NCBI RefSeq assembly: GCF_016026235.1
Contig: NZ_CP065613.1
Reading direction: 5' to 3' (one strand)
DNA: 64,000 nt
From: Escherichia coli
GTDB taxonomy: Bacteria > Pseudomonadota > Gammaproteobacteria > Enterobacterales > Enterobacteriaceae
Shown here one piece after another: positions 2,404-46,358 of the stretch. Both the position numbers and the translations under genes were made by a program. Numbering within the stretch: the first letter of the stretch is position 1; each line of letters starts with the position of its first letter. The notes under the pieces were generated by a model. That model did not search any database, was not told the DNA's origin, and saw only the letters and a list, made by a program, of their open reading frames with translations.

Positions 2404-3483
2404 TTAATGTTGTCTGTCATACCAATACACCAGGCTCAACGCCACCAACACAAACGCTACCGGTAAACCGAGCGCGGTAACAGGTGCGCTTAACGCAAAT
2501 AGCAATCCCAGATTAACCATGATTTGATAGCTGATCCAGGTGAGTAAGCCCACGATGACGCCTACAGCGAGACGGCTACCCATCCCAGGCGAACGCGGGG
2601 CAGTAAAGGTAAACGGCACAGCCAGCAAAATCATCGCCAGGGTCAGGATGGGTTGCCCCAGTTTTTCCCACAGTGCAAGGCGGTATTCGCTGCTGGGTTG
2701 CCCGGTTTCCTGCAAATAATGGATGTAATGATTAAGCTGACGGACAGAAAAAGTATTCCCCGGCATTGATAACTCTTCAAGATTCATACTGGTGAAGGCC
2801 GATTGCCAGGCAAGATTATCTAATGTTTCCAGCGTTTCTTTGCCATTCAGCCATTTTTTATGATTCACACCATGCAGGACCCACGTTTTGTCGTCTTTAA
2901 TGGTGGCACTGCGTGCATAAATGTAGGATTCAAGCGAGAGATCGTCGGGATAATGAAATATCTCCACGCCCACCGGCTGGCCCTGCTCGTTCAGCGATTT
3001 CACCGTCACAAATTCATTACCACGCCTGGCCCACAGCATATTGCCGGTAATGTCATCGTCCTCCCCCAACGCGGTGGCGGTCGATTTGATTTGCAGCGCC
3101 TGTTGCTGCAATGGCGACGCCACCCACTCATCTATCGCGCCTAACGAAACAGTCCACAATATCCCGGCAACCAGCGCCACCAGTGCAATACGGAAGATAG
3201 AAAACCCCGTGCTGCGAATGGCGGTAAGCTCACTGTTTTTCGATAACTGCCCCAGGCCAACAATCCCTCCCAATAAGGCGATAAACGGCGAAAGTTCGAC
3301 CAGTGTGCGCGGTAAGGTCATTAGCACCACCAGCACCGCCTGAGTCCAGCGATAACCGCCCGGGCTGACATCATCCAGTTCGTTAATCAGGTTGAAGGTG
3401 GTAAAAAGCGGCAGCAATAGCCCTGCGGCGGCGGCAAAACCGAGAAAGAGATGACGGATTAAATAGCGACTGAAAACATTCAT
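2404..3483 (-). CDS. LptG-like (YjgP/YjgQ family) permease paralog
   Basis: ORF 2404-3564; likely start at internal Met (MNVFSRYLIRHLF) giving a 4-bp overlap with the upstream gene; multi-TM protein with C-terminal similarity to LptG. Confidence 0.7.
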   Translation of the reverse strand: MNVFSRYLIRHLFLGFAAAAGLLLPLFTTFNLINELDDVSPGGYRWTQAVLVVLMTLPRTLVELSPFIALLGGIVGLGQLSKNSELTAIRSTGFSIFRIALVALVAGILWTVSLGAIDEWVASPLQQQALQIKSTATALGEDDDITGNMLWARRGNEFVTVKSLNEQGQPVGVEIFHYPDDLSLESYIYARSATIKDDKTWVLHGVNHKKWLNGKETLETLDNLAWQSAFTSMNLEELSMPGNTFSVRQLNHYIHYLQETGQPSSEYRLALWEKLGQPILTLAMILLAVPFTFTAPRSPGMGSRLAVGVIVGLLTWISYQIMVNLGLLFALSAPVTALGLPVAFVLVALSLVYWYDRQH

Positions 3484-4550
3484 CGGGAAAATTTCTGCAG
3501 CAAAGAGAAGTCGCGTGCGACCAGCATCAGCAGGCCCATTAGCATGAGTCCGGGTACTAACCACAAACCAGGAATGAGGGGAATCGCGCCGTTAGCCACC
3601 AGCGTACGGCAGACGTCGCCGCCATAAAAAATGGCAATAAACAGCAACGTCAGTGGCAATAATGTTGAAAATCGCCCTTGCCGCGGTTTTACCCGACTTA
3701 ATGAAATGGCCAGCAGCGCCATCAACAATGCTGTCAGGCCACGGCTTTGCCGCCATTGCAGTTCGGCATGATCGGCAGGAAATACAGAGCGTGCCAGCTC
3801 CGTGACCGATTTTGCTTTGCGTTTGACGTTAGGGCTTTGATCCAGCGGATTCAGATGTAATTGCAGATTACGGTAGATCTGTTCATTGTCGTCACGCCCC
3901 TGATGATCGAGAAGATAGGCAGTGCCGTTGTGCAACATAACGGTCGGTTTCTCGGGTGATGGGTCAACCACATCAACCGAACGGGCGCGGAAAATGCGGG
4001 TTCGATTGGCAGTAGAAGTATAAATCAGCGCGTCAGTCAGGCGATTATTATCCTGATCAACCGTCTGCGAAAGGATCATTCGTCCGTTATCGTTAGTGTT
4101 AAATTTCTTTGCCCGCAACTGGCGAACATCCAGCTCCGACTGCGACTGCTGCTCCAGTTGATAAATCTGCGCATAAGCCCACGGACGACCATACATCGAC
4201 AGAAGGGTGACAAAAATACTTAGCGGTATCGCCAGATAAAGAACGGCTTTGTACAAGCGTCCCGGACTGCCCCCCGCCGCAGAGATAGCGGTAATTTCCG
4301 AGTCGGTATACATCTGCCCTAGCGTCACGCCAACTGACACATACAGACCAACAGGTAACAACATCTCCAGTGCAATCAGCACTTTGTAGAAAACGATATC
4401 CAGCACAACATCAAGAGCTAATGTCCCATTTGCCGCTTCGGTCAGATAACGCTGTGCGGAGTAGCTGGCGAAAATAAAGATCAGAAAACCGACGATAATC
4501 AGCACCAGACGGCGCGTACCACGCATGATGTAGTGTTCAACCAGCTTCAT
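3480..4550 (-). CDS. LptF-like (YjgP/YjgQ family) permease paralog
   Basis: 356-aa ORF; motif LGQMYTDSEITAISAAG resembling the conserved LptF/LptG segment; multi-TM. Confidence 0.7.
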   Translation of the reverse strand: MKLVEHYIMRGTRRLVLIIVGFLIFIFASYSAQRYLTEAANGTLALDVVLDIVFYKVLIALEMLLPVGLYVSVGVTLGQMYTDSEITAISAAGGSPGRLYKAVLYLAIPLSIFVTLLSMYGRPWAYAQIYQLEQQSQSELDVRQLRAKKFNTNDNGRMILSQTVDQDNNRLTDALIYTSTANRTRIFRARSVDVVDPSPEKPTVMLHNGTAYLLDHQGRDDNEQIYRNLQLHLNPLDQSPNVKRKAKSVTELARSVFPADHAELQWRQSRGLTALLMALLAISLSRVKPRQGRFSTLLPLTLLFIAIFYGGDVCRTLVANGAIPLIPGLWLVPGLMLMGLLMLVARDFSLLQKFSR

Positions 4551-4580
4551 CTCACTAACGCCCTCAATCCTTTGAATTTT

Positions 4581-5144
4581 TTATTCATTGATCAGTTTCT
4601 GCGCCAGCGCAATGACATGATCTACCTCTTCCGGCGTCAGGCTGCCGTCCTTTGCCCACTGAATTTGCCCGGTTTTATTCAGCACCAGAATGGTTGAACT
4701 CTGCTCCGGCAAGCGCCAGGCAACGCGTCCCTGTCCATTGCCGTCAATAACGAATTGCGCCCACGGATAGCGGCGTTTATTTTTTTCGATTTTGCCAACG
4801 ACAAAATAGCCAGTACCAAAGATGGCATCATCAGTGTTCACAATGGTGGTGGGCTGAAAACGATCCTGTGGAAAGTTTGCCGCTTCAACCGCTTTAATTA
4901 ACAGTGAGTTCTTCTTCTTCGCTGACTTACGCCCGGCGATATACTGGATAATGCGGACTTTTCCCGCCAATTGTGTGCTGTTCCACTTTTGGTAGTGAAT
5001 TTCGTCGTCGCTATTCAGAAGCAGCTCGCCGCCTTCCTGAATATAAACAGGGGTAACCGTTTTGCCAGTGACGAAATTGTGTGCCTGCACACCCGGGGCT
5101 AAGAGCATGATAATCAGCGCAATAATCAAACGAGATGACATCAT
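4581..5144 (-). CDS. secreted/periplasmic protein of unknown function
   Basis: 187-aa ORF with an N-terminal signal-peptide-like segment (LIIALIIMLLAPGVQA). Confidence 0.5.
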   Translation of the reverse strand: MMSSRLIIALIIMLLAPGVQAHNFVTGKTVTPVYIQEGGELLLNSDDEIHYQKWNSTQLAGKVRIIQYIAGRKSAKKKNSLLIKAVEAANFPQDRFQPTTIVNTDDAIFGTGYFVVGKIEKNKRRYPWAQFVIDGNGQGRVAWRLPEQSSTILVLNKTGQIQWAKDGSLTPEEVDHVIALAQKLINE

Positions 5145-5152
5145 TGCTCCGG

Positions 5153-5977
5153 TTATAGCGGAAAACGCGAAATCAGCAGCTCTAAGCGCTGGCGAATATC
5201 GCTATCCAGCGCCACCGGTGCATCATACGACTGGCGGTTTTCCATATCATCCGCCACCATGTCGTCGTGTTTATCCCCCATCAGGCCATTAATGGCGGCG
5301 AGGAAACGGGAAATCTGTAACGCCTCTTTATTTTCAGGATCAAGCGATCTTAAGGTGTCGTAATAAGAAACCTGCTGGCTGATGATTTTTCGCACATCAT
5401 GAAATTCCCTGCCGGTTAGTCGCGGTTTGGCAATTATCTCTTTCAGGGCATGCATTTGCTTTTGCCGATAGGCAATAAAACCGCTTACGCTTTCTAACTG
5501 GCTATGGCGTAATGAATAGTTCACCAACGACCAGACCGGAGAGCTTAAATAAATTCGTAACAGGTTGCCGTAATACGACACAATATTTTTCTTACCGTTA
5601 CGAAATCCGTCCTGAAAACGTCCCAGAAAAACGGTCGTTTTGCCGAATAAAAATCTGGCCTGATGCTTTTTTAAATACAGCCGTTGTGCAAAACGTAGAT
5701 GCTTGTAGCGCGCTCGCATGTATTTAAACTGTTTACGCTCGTCTGTCGTCAGCTCATCGCCTTTGGCTTGTTTGCGAATTAAACGAAGTAATTCCTGACG
5801 ATCAACGCCATTGAGCCAGAATTGCAGGCATAACGCGTAATTATCATGGATGATTTCGGTGGTACAACATAGTGCGATAGTCGGCGGCAAACTGACCTGG
5901 GCATCAACAACATCATCTTCCTCAATCGCAACAAATAGATGCTCGCTCGCCTCAAGCGGGAAATATTTTCTCATCAT
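5153..5977 (-). CDS. hypothetical protein (possible counterpart of the K-12 yghO pseudogene)
   Basis: 274-aa ORF, in operon orientation with flanking genes; no motif recognised. Confidence 0.45.
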   Translation of the reverse strand: MMRKYFPLEASEHLFVAIEEDDVVDAQVSLPPTIALCCTTEIIHDNYALCLQFWLNGVDRQELLRLIRKQAKGDELTTDERKQFKYMRARYKHLRFAQRLYLKKHQARFLFGKTTVFLGRFQDGFRNGKKNIVSYYGNLLRIYLSSPVWSLVNYSLRHSQLESVSGFIAYRQKQMHALKEIIAKPRLTGREFHDVRKIISQQVSYYDTLRSLDPENKEALQISRFLAAINGLMGDKHDDMVADDMENRQSYDAPVALDSDIRQRLELLISRFPL

Positions 5978-44532: not shown

Positions 44533-44540
44533 CTTCTCTG

Positions 44541-44573
44541 TCTATGAGAGCCGTTAAAACGACTCTCATAGAT
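44541..44573. terminator. bidirectional stem-loop between qseC and ygiZ
   Basis: ctatgagag / ctctcatag inverted repeat followed by attttact. Confidence 0.5.
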
Positions 44574-44577
44574 TTTA

Positions 44578-44910
44578 CTAATAGCAAAATATAAACCGTC
44601 CCCAAAAAAGCCACCAACCACAAACCAGACAAATACCGAGCGAGAATACATATACCCAAAACTCGAACATTTCCCGCATAAAGAGTTTTCTTAAGATAAG
44701 AATAATAAGTGGCGTAAGAAGAAAAAATGCTGCAATCATTGCTTGCAATATACGATCTTCGCCTGAAACGGAAGGTATACTGCAAATATTGCCTCCCGAG
44801 TCAAGCATCCAGTCATACTTATTGAAAGCAAAAAAAGCATCTATTAACCAATAAGTAAGCATTATGTATAATAATGCTTCAAATATTGATAGTAGTTGTT
44901 TTTTTAACAT
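44578..44910 (-). CDS. ygiZ: small three-TM inner-membrane protein; candidate immunity protein for the upstream effector
   Basis: 110 aa, AT-rich, 6 bp downstream of the effector-like gene on the same strand. Confidence 0.7.
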   Translation of the reverse strand: MLKKQLLSIFEALLYIMLTYWLIDAFFAFNKYDWMLDSGGNICSIPSVSGEDRILQAMIAAFFLLTPLIILILRKLFMREMFEFWVYVFSLGICLVCGWWLFWGRFIFCY

Positions 44911-44916
44911 GTCTGA

Positions 44917-45627
44917 TTACTCATTAATCAATTTTTTGATATGTTCTCTAATCTCTAACAACCTCATACCATAAGAGATGAATTTATAATCATCTGTATC
45001 ACGCGCAGGCAAATTATTAATTAAATAAATAAAAAACCCCAAATCTCGTTCAACACCACGATTATATCTAATACCAGCCATAATATACTGCTCATTCGTC
45101 ATATACAGTGTTGCCGAAGAGGGATAATCAAAAAGGGCAAGATCTCTTAAATGAGTAGCAGCAATTTGAAACGTAAAATCATCTTCCATTAGGCATGTCG
45201 CTAACTCTAACTGATTTCTGGTAGTTAATTCTGAAGGGTCAAGACCTAGAGTAATCGCTGCGGTTCGTATTTGTATACCCATTGAGCCAAATGATGTTTT
45301 ATTTTCAGGCATATCTAACAATCCAATCATTCTTTTTGTTTCATATATCTGAAACTTATAATTTTCAGGCATACCTCCTGACTCAATCCAGGCCACACCG
45401 CCCAGTAACTCTGGACGAATCCCAGCGGCATATGCATGTTTAATTATTTTGTCCCTATTATATTGTACATATGCATCTTTATAAGCATTTAAATAATATA
45501 CTCCCGAACGGCGACGCGAATCATTTTTTCCTAACTTCCAGAGTAAAACGTCCATTTCATCCCATTTACGGAACTTAGTTTGTGGAATTGTACAATAGCT
45601 ATTTTTTATAGTGAGATCGCTTTTCAT
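44917..45627 (-). CDS. candidate T6SS cargo effector with lysozyme-like / lytic-transglycosylase-like motifs
   Basis: ORF 44917-45654; AT-rich; motifs AWIESGG, SMGIQIRTAA and AGIRYNRG resemble the ES / GLMQ / AYNAG motifs of SLT domains (weak, by eye). Confidence 0.45.
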   Translation of the reverse strand: MKSDLTIKNSYCTIPQTKFRKWDEMDVLLWKLGKNDSRRRSGVYYLNAYKDAYVQYNRDKIIKHAYAAGIRPELLGGVAWIESGGMPENYKFQIYETKRMIGLLDMPENKTSFGSMGIQIRTAAITLGLDPSELTTRNQLELATCLMEDDFTFQIAATHLRDLALFDYPSSATLYMTNEQYIMAGIRYNRGVERDLGFFIYLINNLPARDTDDYKFISYGMRLLEIREHIKKLINE

Positions 45628-45629
45628 AT

Positions 45630-46109
45630 TTAAAAAACCCTTTCTTCCCAACAACTATATGATTCCGTACTCGCGATATGGTGCTTCCATGTTATATTTT
45701 TATAATTAAGAACAATAACCTCTTCCGGTTGATTACCCGCATGTGTAATTGAGTGTGGATAACAAGTCAGAATATTCGATAAATGTGCCCCTTGCAATTC
45801 AATTGTGTAAAACCTTTCAATACAACCGCCAGAATTAATTCTATAAAAATTAAATATAGCTGATAACTCTTCATTTTCAGAAAGAGCAGCATTTAATAAA
45901 GGGGAGGATTTATCTATTGGCTTGTAAAATTTTATGGGGTGATGCACTACATTATATTCTCGACTTAAAGAATGGTCGAACTGCAAAACAAAAATTTCAT
46001 CCACATGATTTATTTGATATTTATTACCAATAGATGCATACGAACCACAGCCCTCAGAGATCAAACCTTGTGTTTTCCCTTTAATTGATAAGTATATGAT
46101 ATTTGACAT
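45630..46109 (-). CDS. hcp: Hcp-family type VI secretion tube protein (orphan)
   Basis: 159 aa; alignable along its length to enterobacterial Hcp1, including the C-terminal NYKNITWKH...SYSCWEE block. Confidence 0.8.
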   Translation of the reverse strand: MSNIIYLSIKGKTQGLISEGCGSYASIGNKYQINHVDEIFVLQFDHSLSREYNVVHHPIKFYKPIDKSSPLLNAALSENEELSAIFNFYRINSGGCIERFYTIELQGAHLSNILTCYPHSITHAGNQPEEVIVLNYKNITWKHHIASTESYSCWEERVF

Positions 46110-46358
46110 ATATATTCTCCATGATTATTTTTTCCGAAAAGCTCCTGTATCATTTGCATAATACATCTCTCCTGTGGGAACTTATGGGAAGTTGATTTCA
46201 GTATTGTCATTTTCAGAAAATATTTATCCTGCATCGGTGAGTCAGAGCAAGATCAGACTTTTGCTAAATTCGCAAAAGACTTTGCACATTTTGCTAATTT
46301 CACCGTACCGCTCTGTGACGTACTATAGTCGGCAAACGTCTCACCTTGAGGTTAAAAA

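Follow-up and report, generated by a model that had tools for sequence, protein, structure and literature searches.

The gene order hcp, effector and then immunity gene, as well as the retention of immunity genes as orphans, are already well known among type VI secretion system (T6SS) cassettes. In the hcp islands of Pantoea agglomerans, for instance, effectors have been lost or replaced and immunity genes, some of which encode proteins with transmembrane helices, have been retained (PMC9796082), and Vibrio cholerae has orphan immunity arrays. Here, we describe a cassette of this kind in a 64,000-nucleotide (nt) stretch of the Escherichia coli chromosome (contig NZ_CP065613.1 of NCBI RefSeq assembly GCF_016026235.1; hereafter, the window), where three minus-strand genes, namely an orphan hcp, a gene for a protein of 236 amino acids (aa) and ygiZ, a member of the DUF2645 family, are lodged between qseC and mdaB. 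The gene order, conserved pairing and distribution of these genes, together with the predicted fold and predicted topology of their products, are reported below, and make it likely that the trio is a horizontally acquired T6SS cassette in which the 236-aa protein would be a toxin with the fold of glycoside hydrolase family 23 (GH23) and YgiZ its cognate immunity protein. Unlike the Pantoea hcp island, the cassette in the window is a free-standing three-gene islet between housekeeping genes, outside a T6SS cluster, and unlike the orphans of such islands, the ygiZ orphan has become fixed across most of E. coli; the laboratory strain K-12, which is not known to have a T6SS, is one of its carriers. 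Moreover, the transmembrane immunity proteins of Pantoea are paired with pore-forming toxins (PMC9796082), whereas the partner of YgiZ is a predicted glycosidase. What is new here is the proposed effector-immunity family, and its unusual aspects are a membrane-embedded shield against a soluble wall enzyme and an orphan fixed in most of a model species; outside the subscription-only literature, we found no publication linking ygiZ, DUF2645 or the hcp islet between qseC and mdaB to T6SS.

The window covers the chromosomal region around parC, ygiV, ygiW, qseB, qseC, mdaB, ygiN and parE, and the three genes lie in the interval that extends from the qseC stop (44532) to the mdaB start (46359). The unit begins with the orphan hcp (tssD; 45630-46109, minus strand; 159 aa), the presumed effector carrier, whose product matches TIGR03344 with an E-value of 7.6e-59 and a score of 198 bits (cut-off 58.9). 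After a gap of 2 nt comes the effector-like gene (44917-45627, minus strand), which encodes 236 aa from the RefSeq ATG within an open frame extending to a TTG at 45654; its stop codon (44917-44919) is followed by 6 nt (44911-44916) and then by the ATG, at 44910, of ygiZ (44578-44910, minus strand), an open reading frame (ORF) for the proposed 110-aa immunity protein. RefSeq annotates the same trio in near-identical genomes: ygiZ is entered as a DUF2645 family protein, its neighbour as a hypothetical protein of 236 aa and the third gene as an Hcp-family protein. Precomputed matches to PF10840 (DUF2645) are present on close homologues of YgiZ as well as on its counterparts in other genera. The GC content (fraction of guanine and cytosine) is 0.345 for ygiZ, 0.352 for the effector-like gene and 0.327 for hcp, compared with 0.524 for qseC, 0.502 for mdaB and 0.507 for the whole window. 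The trio is a tight co-directional unit with a common foreign composition (33-35% GC, compared with ~51% in the flanks). An earlier note on this DNA, made from the letters alone, had placed ygiZ 6 bp after the effector-like gene on the same strand and called it similarly AT-rich; the spacing proved exact in the ORF coordinates and the composition agrees. We also considered whether the islet hcp corresponds to Hcp2B, as published for avian pathogenic E. coli, and rejected this identification; hcp2B sits in an hcp2B-vgrG2 operon with a PAAR-peptidase effector.

The main evidence for an immunity role of YgiZ is the persistence of the effector-DUF2645 pairing across genera, and this evidence is comparative. 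Our survey of genomic context comprised approximately 25 loci of effector and DUF2645 relatives and is not a census; a profile scan of genome contigs with a DUF2645 alignment yielded seven loci only and missed known carriers in E. coli, Pectobacterium and Chania. Every effector relative examined is directly followed, in the same direction, by a gene for a DUF2645 or DUF2645-like three-helix membrane protein, and hcp lies directly upstream in nearly all cassettes examined in other genera. The distance from the effector stop to the DUF2645 start ranges from -14 to +6 nt in all loci, which suggests translational coupling. All three genes were confirmed by tblastn at loci outside E. coli, in unrelated surroundings: at the same mdaB-qseC site in Citrobacter, between pagP and an EamA gene in Pectobacterium jejuense, after uvrD in Pectobacterium araliae, on plasmids of Serratia fonticola and Serratia sp., at two loci in Serratia sp. 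H1w, on the chromosomes of Chania and Erwinia sorbitola, in two Pseudocitrobacter genomes, on a megaplasmid of Rahnella aceris (with an effector only 40% identical) and on a metagenome contig whose DUF2645 member is only 28% identical to YgiZ. The pairing is also seen where the toxin has a different delivery component: one metagenome contig encodes a PAAR-toxin fusion (361 aa, PF05488) followed by a 100-aa DUF2645 gene that overlaps it by one base, and no hcp was called upstream of the fusion on this 2.6-kb contig. Because the pairing persists in the PAAR fusion, the DUF2645 protein travels with the toxin domain rather than with the delivery component, which is the behaviour expected of an immunity protein. 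Furthermore, in some Citrobacter genomes (two loci) the effector is split by a frameshift into ORFs of 150 and 90 aa or hcp is called at only 112 aa, with the DUF2645 protein identical across these loci, and in E. coli KL53 hcp is interrupted by IS1. The Citrobacter frameshift and the KL53 insertion show that the weapon decays before the shield.

Within E. coli, the locus occurs in three states, which we scored at the DNA level in 5426 complete genomes. The trio is found in 1261 genomes (~23%), including the window, CFT073, Nissle 1917 and ATCC 25922; ygiZ alone in ~3340 (~61%), such as K-12; and neither in ~830 (~15%), such as O157:H7. Effector and hcp co-occur in an identical set of 1261 genomes, and in all but one of these (1260) the ygiZ-effector junction is contiguous, whereas ygiZ DNA was detected in 4598 genomes, so that a homologue of the proposed immunity gene is commonly present where its cognate effector is absent. 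The earlier note had suggested a survey of this sort, comparing the presence of hcp and effector with that of ygiZ, and the outcome, together with the cross-genus pairing in unrelated contexts, supports its interpretation of ygiZ as the immunity gene on comparative rather than experimental grounds.

As that note had stated, K-12 carries ygiZ. The gene lies between qseC and mdaB, with neither hcp nor the effector at the locus; its product shares 94% amino-acid identity with YgiZ of the window. In a three-way comparison of the window, K-12 and O157, the AT-rich islet recognized from the composition profile (44533-46254, no strand), which reaches from the qseC stop to the mdaB promoter region, is missing at the empty site of the O157:H7 type, and only 3 nt lie there between the end of qseC and mdaB-promoter DNA. 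K-12 aligns with the window through ygiZ codon 8 (44888) and again from 46182 onwards, 72 bp upstream of hcp. The segment absent from K-12-type genomes, as delimited by blastn breakpoints (44889-46181, no strand), comprises the first seven ygiZ codons, the effector, hcp and the 72 bp upstream of hcp, and in its place K-12 has 163 bp of unrelated DNA. These 163 bp are 84% identical to the matching DNA at the orphan locus of E. whittamii, which implies an old orphan haplotype with an upstream region of its own. At the same time, K-12 retains both ends of the islet, including the 73 bp of its right-hand end (46182-46254, no strand) that are missing from the O157-type empty site, a state which fits an internal replacement inside a former trio, with the direction of change being the one we infer. 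The earlier note had suggested that ygiZ of K-12 might be left behind after loss of hcp and the effector: the orphan state holds in ~3340 genomes with ygiZ only, and the loss would be its most parsimonious explanation.

The breakpoint that separates the trio haplotype from that of K-12 lies at codon 8 of ygiZ (44889-44910 in the window versus 2857-2878 in the extracted K-12 locus, L001), and the first seven codons differ in both DNA and protein (MLKKQLLS versus MLKQKIKT). Both versions begin with MLK, and the 5' end of the K-12 gene is hence that of a different, older ygiZ allele and not random DNA. Between the convergent qseC and ygiZ stops, a hairpin with a perfect 14-bp stem (44541-44572, no strand; RNA folding energy -21.3 kcal/mol, z = -5.6, with 0 of 200 shuffled sequences folding as well) is probably a terminator shared by the two genes; it is part of the islet and is absent in O157. 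A simple scan for promoter and terminator consensus sequences was uninformative and did not flag this hairpin. Finally, the plasmid collection includes 4.8-4.9-Mb entries filed as plasmids of E. coli and a 354-kb E. coli 'plasmid' in which the qseC-side trio is 99.6% identical. All of these resemble chromosomes, or pieces of chromosomes, under a wrong label, and the single 'plasmid' occurrence in E. coli is therefore not taken as evidence of mobility.

The 236-aa protein has zero family matches in Pfam and NCBIfam, and a sequence-profile search against the PDB likewise gave nothing usable. Its only family match is phrog_11932, a phage family of unknown function (E 1.7e-29, residues 9-196); despite this match, a scan of 2.9 million viral contigs turned up no relative. 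An AlphaFold2 model built from a 70-sequence alignment is confidently all-alpha (pLDDT 91.2, pTM 0.88), and Foldseek assigns it to the superfamily of the lysozyme-like GH23/SLT fold; the nearest matches include housekeeping lytic transglycosylases, and the complex of the inhibitor PliG with g-type lysozyme (4g9s) is also among them. A bridge to known enzymes is provided by a Paenactinomyces protein, to which residues 45-191 of the effector are 37% identical (E 5e-24) within a region matching Pfam SLT (PF01464, residues 165-297 of the bridge protein). Nine residues are invariant among the 70 sequences, namely Glu82, T111, S112, G114, Q119, R187, Y188, R190 and G191, and most of them fall into two motifs, T111-S112-x-G114...Q119 and R187-Y188-N-R190-G191; together they resemble motifs typical of family 1 lytic transglycosylases (E-S, G-L-M-Q and A-Y-N-x-G). 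We therefore predict a lysozyme-like GH23 (lytic transglycosylase or muramidase) fold. The protein differs from family 1 lytic transglycosylases proper (Slt70, MltC, MltE, MltF; PF01464) in that neither it nor any of 24 close relatives matches PF01464 directly (for the effector, even at E = 10) and in being encoded with hcp or PAAR. An N-terminal hydrophobic signal, a lipobox and a transmembrane segment are all absent from its sequence. Because of the predicted fold, the invariant residues and the absence of an export signal, the protein is best read as a peptidoglycan glycan-cleaving toxin that would reach the periplasm only via injection. Its combination of a predicted enzymatic toxin domain with an adjacent gene for a secreted T6SS component, hcp 2 nt upstream or, in one relative, a fused PAAR domain, is that of a T6SS cargo effector.

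In predicted function and fold, the window effector resembles Tse3 of Pseudomonas aeruginosa, the partner of Tsi3 (Tge1/Tgi1), and the Tge/Tgi pairs in general. Nevertheless, the identity in structural alignment is only 14% with Tse3 and 15% with the Pseudomonas protegens effector 4kt3, and the window effector is far shorter than Tse3 (236 versus ~400 aa) and is encoded behind an orphan hcp. Judging from these identities and from the Pfam and NCBIfam searches, membership of Tge1, Tge2 or Tge3 by sequence appears unlikely.

YgiZ displays hydropathy peaks at residues ~6-29, 55-74 and 84-107, three hydrophobic segments that together cover ~65 of its 110 residues, which confirms the three transmembrane segments proposed in the earlier note. 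In 10 of 10 aligned family members, the N-terminus carries a net positive, loop 1 a net negative and loop 2 a net positive charge; because of this bias, the protein is predicted to have its N-terminus in the cytoplasm and its C-terminus outside, with loop 30-54 in the periplasm; a periplasmic loop had also been predicted in the note. The loop is conserved (NKYDWMLxxGxxxCSIP), with invariant or near-invariant Y32, W34, M35, C43, S44 and P46, and a second group of such residues (W100, F102, G104 and C109) marks the end of helix 3, so that the conserved positions, including both cysteines, are predicted to cluster on the periplasmic side. Cys43 and Cys109 are invariant in the family alignment and are kept even in the most distant DUF2645 members, which are otherwise little alike, suggesting a disulfide that ties the loop to the C-terminus (...GRFIFCY), which has no charged tail. 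The predicted periplasmic placement, based on hydropathy and charge bias, would fit a peptidoglycan target. YgiZ of K-12 differs from that of the window in the cytoplasmic N-terminus, A25S and D37E only, with D37E as the sole change in loop 1; the putative recognition surface is hence preserved, and the K-12 protein could still recognize the effector. The ratio of non-synonymous to synonymous substitution rates (dN/dS), estimated from few sites, is 0.20-0.42 across all comparisons (0.42 for K-12 versus E. whittamii, two orphan lineages, and 0.20-0.28 versus Citrobacter), which indicates moderate purifying selection.

Taking together gene order, distribution and the predictions of fold and topology, we infer the following course of events. 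Lacking a signal peptide, the 236-aa effector would be harmless in the cytoplasm of the producer, where it could be loaded on or in the Hcp tube and then fired by a T6SS whose genes lie elsewhere in the genome. Once in the periplasm of the recipient, it would cut the glycan strands of peptidoglycan. YgiZ, anchored in the inner membrane with its N-terminus inside, would present to the periplasm the conserved loop, probably stapled to the C-terminus by the Cys43-Cys109 disulfide, together with the end of helix 3, and would bind and block the incoming enzyme next to the membrane. K-12 and ~61% of complete E. coli genomes lack the weapon and have a solitary ygiZ preceded by a promoter of its own; there, the orphan would shield the cell against effector-carrying neighbours, largely strains of the B2 and extraintestinal pathogenic E. 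coli (ExPEC) type.

Two groups of known protective proteins invite comparison. The E1-type colicin immunity proteins (Cei) are inner-membrane proteins of ~113 aa with three helices that act inside the membrane against a membrane-inserting domain. YgiZ is likewise a small three-helix inner-membrane protein and the proposed shield against an incoming bacteriocin-like toxin; however, the toxin here is a predicted soluble glycosidase, the conservation of YgiZ lies on its periplasmic face, and sequence similarity between the two is nil. The periplasmic lysozyme inhibitors PliG, PliC/MliC and PliI, which are directed at host lysozymes, have signal peptides, are rich in beta structure and occur in soluble or lipid-anchored form. 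Although YgiZ is unrelated to them in sequence and architecture, their action on GH23 and GH22 enzymes, in which a conserved loop enters the active-site cleft, is the mechanism that we propose for loop 30-54.

Several considerations weigh against YgiZ being the immunity protein of this effector. Known immunity proteins to T6SS glycoside hydrolases (Tgi) are soluble periplasmic proteins or lipoproteins, and Tsi3 in particular is soluble or lipid-anchored in the periplasm, whereas YgiZ is a polytopic inner-membrane protein and shows no such trait. Thus, of the earlier note's remark that ygiZ has the usual position and type for a T6SS immunity gene, the position holds, but the type does not, a polytopic membrane protein being unusual against a peptidoglycan hydrolase. 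A 25-residue loop is also a small surface for blocking a 27-kDa enzyme, and the dN/dS values of 0.2-0.4 show only moderate constraint over few sites. As for the loss of the weapon, we searched the 163 bp of K-12 for a remnant of hcp or the effector and found none, the scores being those of shuffled sequence; the orphan haplotype is old and shared with E. whittamii, so that the loss is presumed. In other lineages, some distantly related DUF2645 genes are solitary. Finally, ygiZ of K-12 is among mostly H-NS-repressed loci activated by BglJ-RcsB (PMC3950696) and may therefore be silent under many conditions, and the phenotypes reported for it concern the envelope in general (PMC7181518, PMC12844161).

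An alternative is that ygiZ was once an immunity gene, the orphan copy of which in K-12-type genomes is now a neutral relic that no longer protects. Without BglJ-RcsB activity, ygiZ is poorly expressed (PMC3950696), the dN/dS of 0.42 for K-12 versus E. whittamii exceeds that in the comparisons with Citrobacter, ~830 E. coli genomes do without the gene, and truncated or disrupted copies are found in Shigella and others. We nevertheless consider a relic improbable. The 110-aa frame is intact in the great majority of the ~3340 orphan genomes, and also in E. whittamii despite ~16% synonymous divergence; the periplasmic loop is identical to that of the window save for D37E, and dN/dS (0.28-0.42) is well below 1.

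Distant relatives of the effector have a similar partner, which also speaks for the immunity role. Profile search extends the effector to a wider family of ~220-aa proteins with 30-41% identity, found more distantly in many Proteobacteria. We examined three such contexts, an E. coli T6SS core cluster, Paracidovorax citrulli and a Cronobacter plasmid, and in each the gene after the effector relative encodes a three-helix protein of 94-98 aa. The loop motifs of these proteins, SEYQWMQDMDPSI, DKYDVLYAMDPSIP and DKYSLIYEMDPSIP, are related to NKYDWMLEPGDSICSIP in DUF2645. By hhalign, the partner from the E. coli T6SS cluster aligns with DUF2645 over helix 1 and loop 1 at 88% probability, whereas the comparison of DUF2645 with the 94-aa Paracidovorax partner is not significant and the similarity of the loop motif was recognized by eye. 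The P. citrulli pair adjoins SMI1_KNR4 and DUF4303 genes.

In E. coli GCA_021295595.1 (positions 3501-4471 of the extracted locus L026), the paralogous pair, consisting of a 228-aa SLT-like protein (~34% identity to the window effector) and a 95-aa three-helix protein, lies between tssL (DotU/OmpA) and tssM (IcmF) in the T6SS core cluster. The two proteins may be an effector and its immunity protein embedded in the cluster, or they may serve the apparatus by remodelling the cell wall. T6SS assembly requires local remodelling of peptidoglycan, for which Acinetobacter uses TagX and enteroaggregative E. coli uses MltE recruited by TssM. Accordingly, the position of this distant pair, the need for such remodelling and the presence of housekeeping lytic transglycosylases among the nearest folds could be taken to mean that the SLT-like proteins and their membrane partners are accessories of the T6SS machine, the enzyme opening the wall of the producer and the DUF2645 protein anchoring or restraining it. 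We find this hard to accept for the cassette in the window. With no signal peptide, lipobox or transmembrane segment, the Sec route to the periplasm of the producer is closed to the enzyme; the toxin domain is also found fused to PAAR, the spike tip that is delivered to the target; and the gene resides behind orphan hcp on plasmids and islets distant from apparatus genes. Effector-immunity pairs inside core clusters are common, and the membrane partner is kept alone in K-12, presumably a strain without T6SS.

DUF2645 itself is a small family. An exhaustive hidden Markov model search of 1.84 billion representative proteins recovered only 33 clusters (50% identity level), of which 21 had E-values below 1e-10, and the members found are mostly from Enterobacterales or from unidentified metagenome sequences. 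Broad occurrence of ygiZ in lineages that never carry the islet, which the earlier note had named as an argument against its proposal, is therefore not what is observed. Nevertheless, several members occur without an effector. In addition to K-12-type E. coli and E. whittamii, an orphan DUF2645 gene is found in a conjugative-element-like region of Serratia oryzae (positions 4285-5321 of locus L021) with membrane and TraD-like genes, directly after a two-gene unit resembling a RelE/ParE-type toxin-antitoxin pair, and is possibly a mobile orphan immunity gene. A metagenome contig with 61% GC (positions 3109-3851 of locus L023) contains two divergent DUF2645 genes in tandem (117 and 116 aa), directly after an operon for an MlaE/MlaF/MlaD-like ATP-binding cassette transporter, with no hcp or effector within 3 kb upstream, and one further orphan follows flgJKL. 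An apparent orphan on a Pectobacterium conjugative plasmid lacks helix 1, is probably a remnant and was not counted as support. The orphan DUF2645 genes fit orphan or acquired immunity, but equally allow an independent function for the distant members.

The latter prospect leads to the idea that YgiZ is an envelope-stress membrane protein with a function of its own, to which its place beside hcp and the effector is irrelevant. This idea draws on the K-12 gene having its own BglJ-RcsB-activated promoter (PMC3950696), on the increased sabinene tolerance and restored cell shape upon ygiZ overexpression (PMC7181518), and on the higher transformation efficiency that ygiZ deletion is reported to confer (cited in PMC12844161). 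Besides, ygiZ is found without the effector in most E. coli, and distant members stand alone beside Mla-like or flagellar genes. However, coincidence cannot explain why at least eight genera, as well as plasmids and unrelated contexts, share this adjacency (-14 to +6 nt) or why it survives the switch to PAAR; the composition of ygiZ is foreign; a family so tiny and patchy is unlike one with a housekeeping function; and the phenotypes stem from overexpression or indirect screens. An envelope-stress role in place of immunity thus appears quite unlikely, and the published data on BglJ-RcsB activation, sabinene tolerance and transformation efficiency leave both the immunity function and its alternatives unaddressed. 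Least credible of all is a holin-endolysin-like pair, in which a small membrane protein would let a muramidase cross the inner membrane for lysis or type 10-like secretion: a lysozyme-fold enzyme without a signal peptide beside a ~100-aa three-helix membrane protein and the phrog_11932 match (E 1.7e-29) bring it to mind, but YgiZ lacks the charged cytoplasmic C-terminal domain of holins and has the predicted topology opposite to that of class I holins, the enzyme comes first and the membrane protein second, behind hcp or PAAR rather than in a phage lysis cassette, neither a relative in the viral contigs nor a phage context was found, and a lone holin in most E. coli would make no sense.

If YgiZ is the immunity protein of this effector, a function would be assigned to ygiZ, a gene that has been without one for decades, and to the Pfam family DUF2645, and a new family of peptidoglycan-cleaving T6SS effectors would be recognized in islets and plasmids of Enterobacterales, in T6SS clusters and in PAAR fusions. 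It would also be a case of membrane-embedded immunity against a soluble cell-wall enzyme. More tentatively, and with considerable doubt on our part, DUF2645 proteins and their shorter relatives may represent novel polytopic inner-membrane inhibitors of GH23 enzymes, in which a short periplasmic loop, joined to the C-terminus via a disulfide, would plug the active site of the incoming muramidase at the membrane surface. As most E. coli, including K-12, keep the orphan, a 'y-gene' long without explanation would then serve as a permanent safeguard against T6SS attack by ExPEC/B2-type E. coli, and YgiZ induced by BglJ-RcsB might damp the lytic transglycosylases of the cell itself, which would explain the phenotypes of terpene tolerance, cell shape and transformation efficiency. 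The coexistence at a single locus of armed, shielded-only and unprotected genotypes (~23%, 61% and 15%, respectively) could shape the competition between ExPEC/B2 and commensal strains in the gut.

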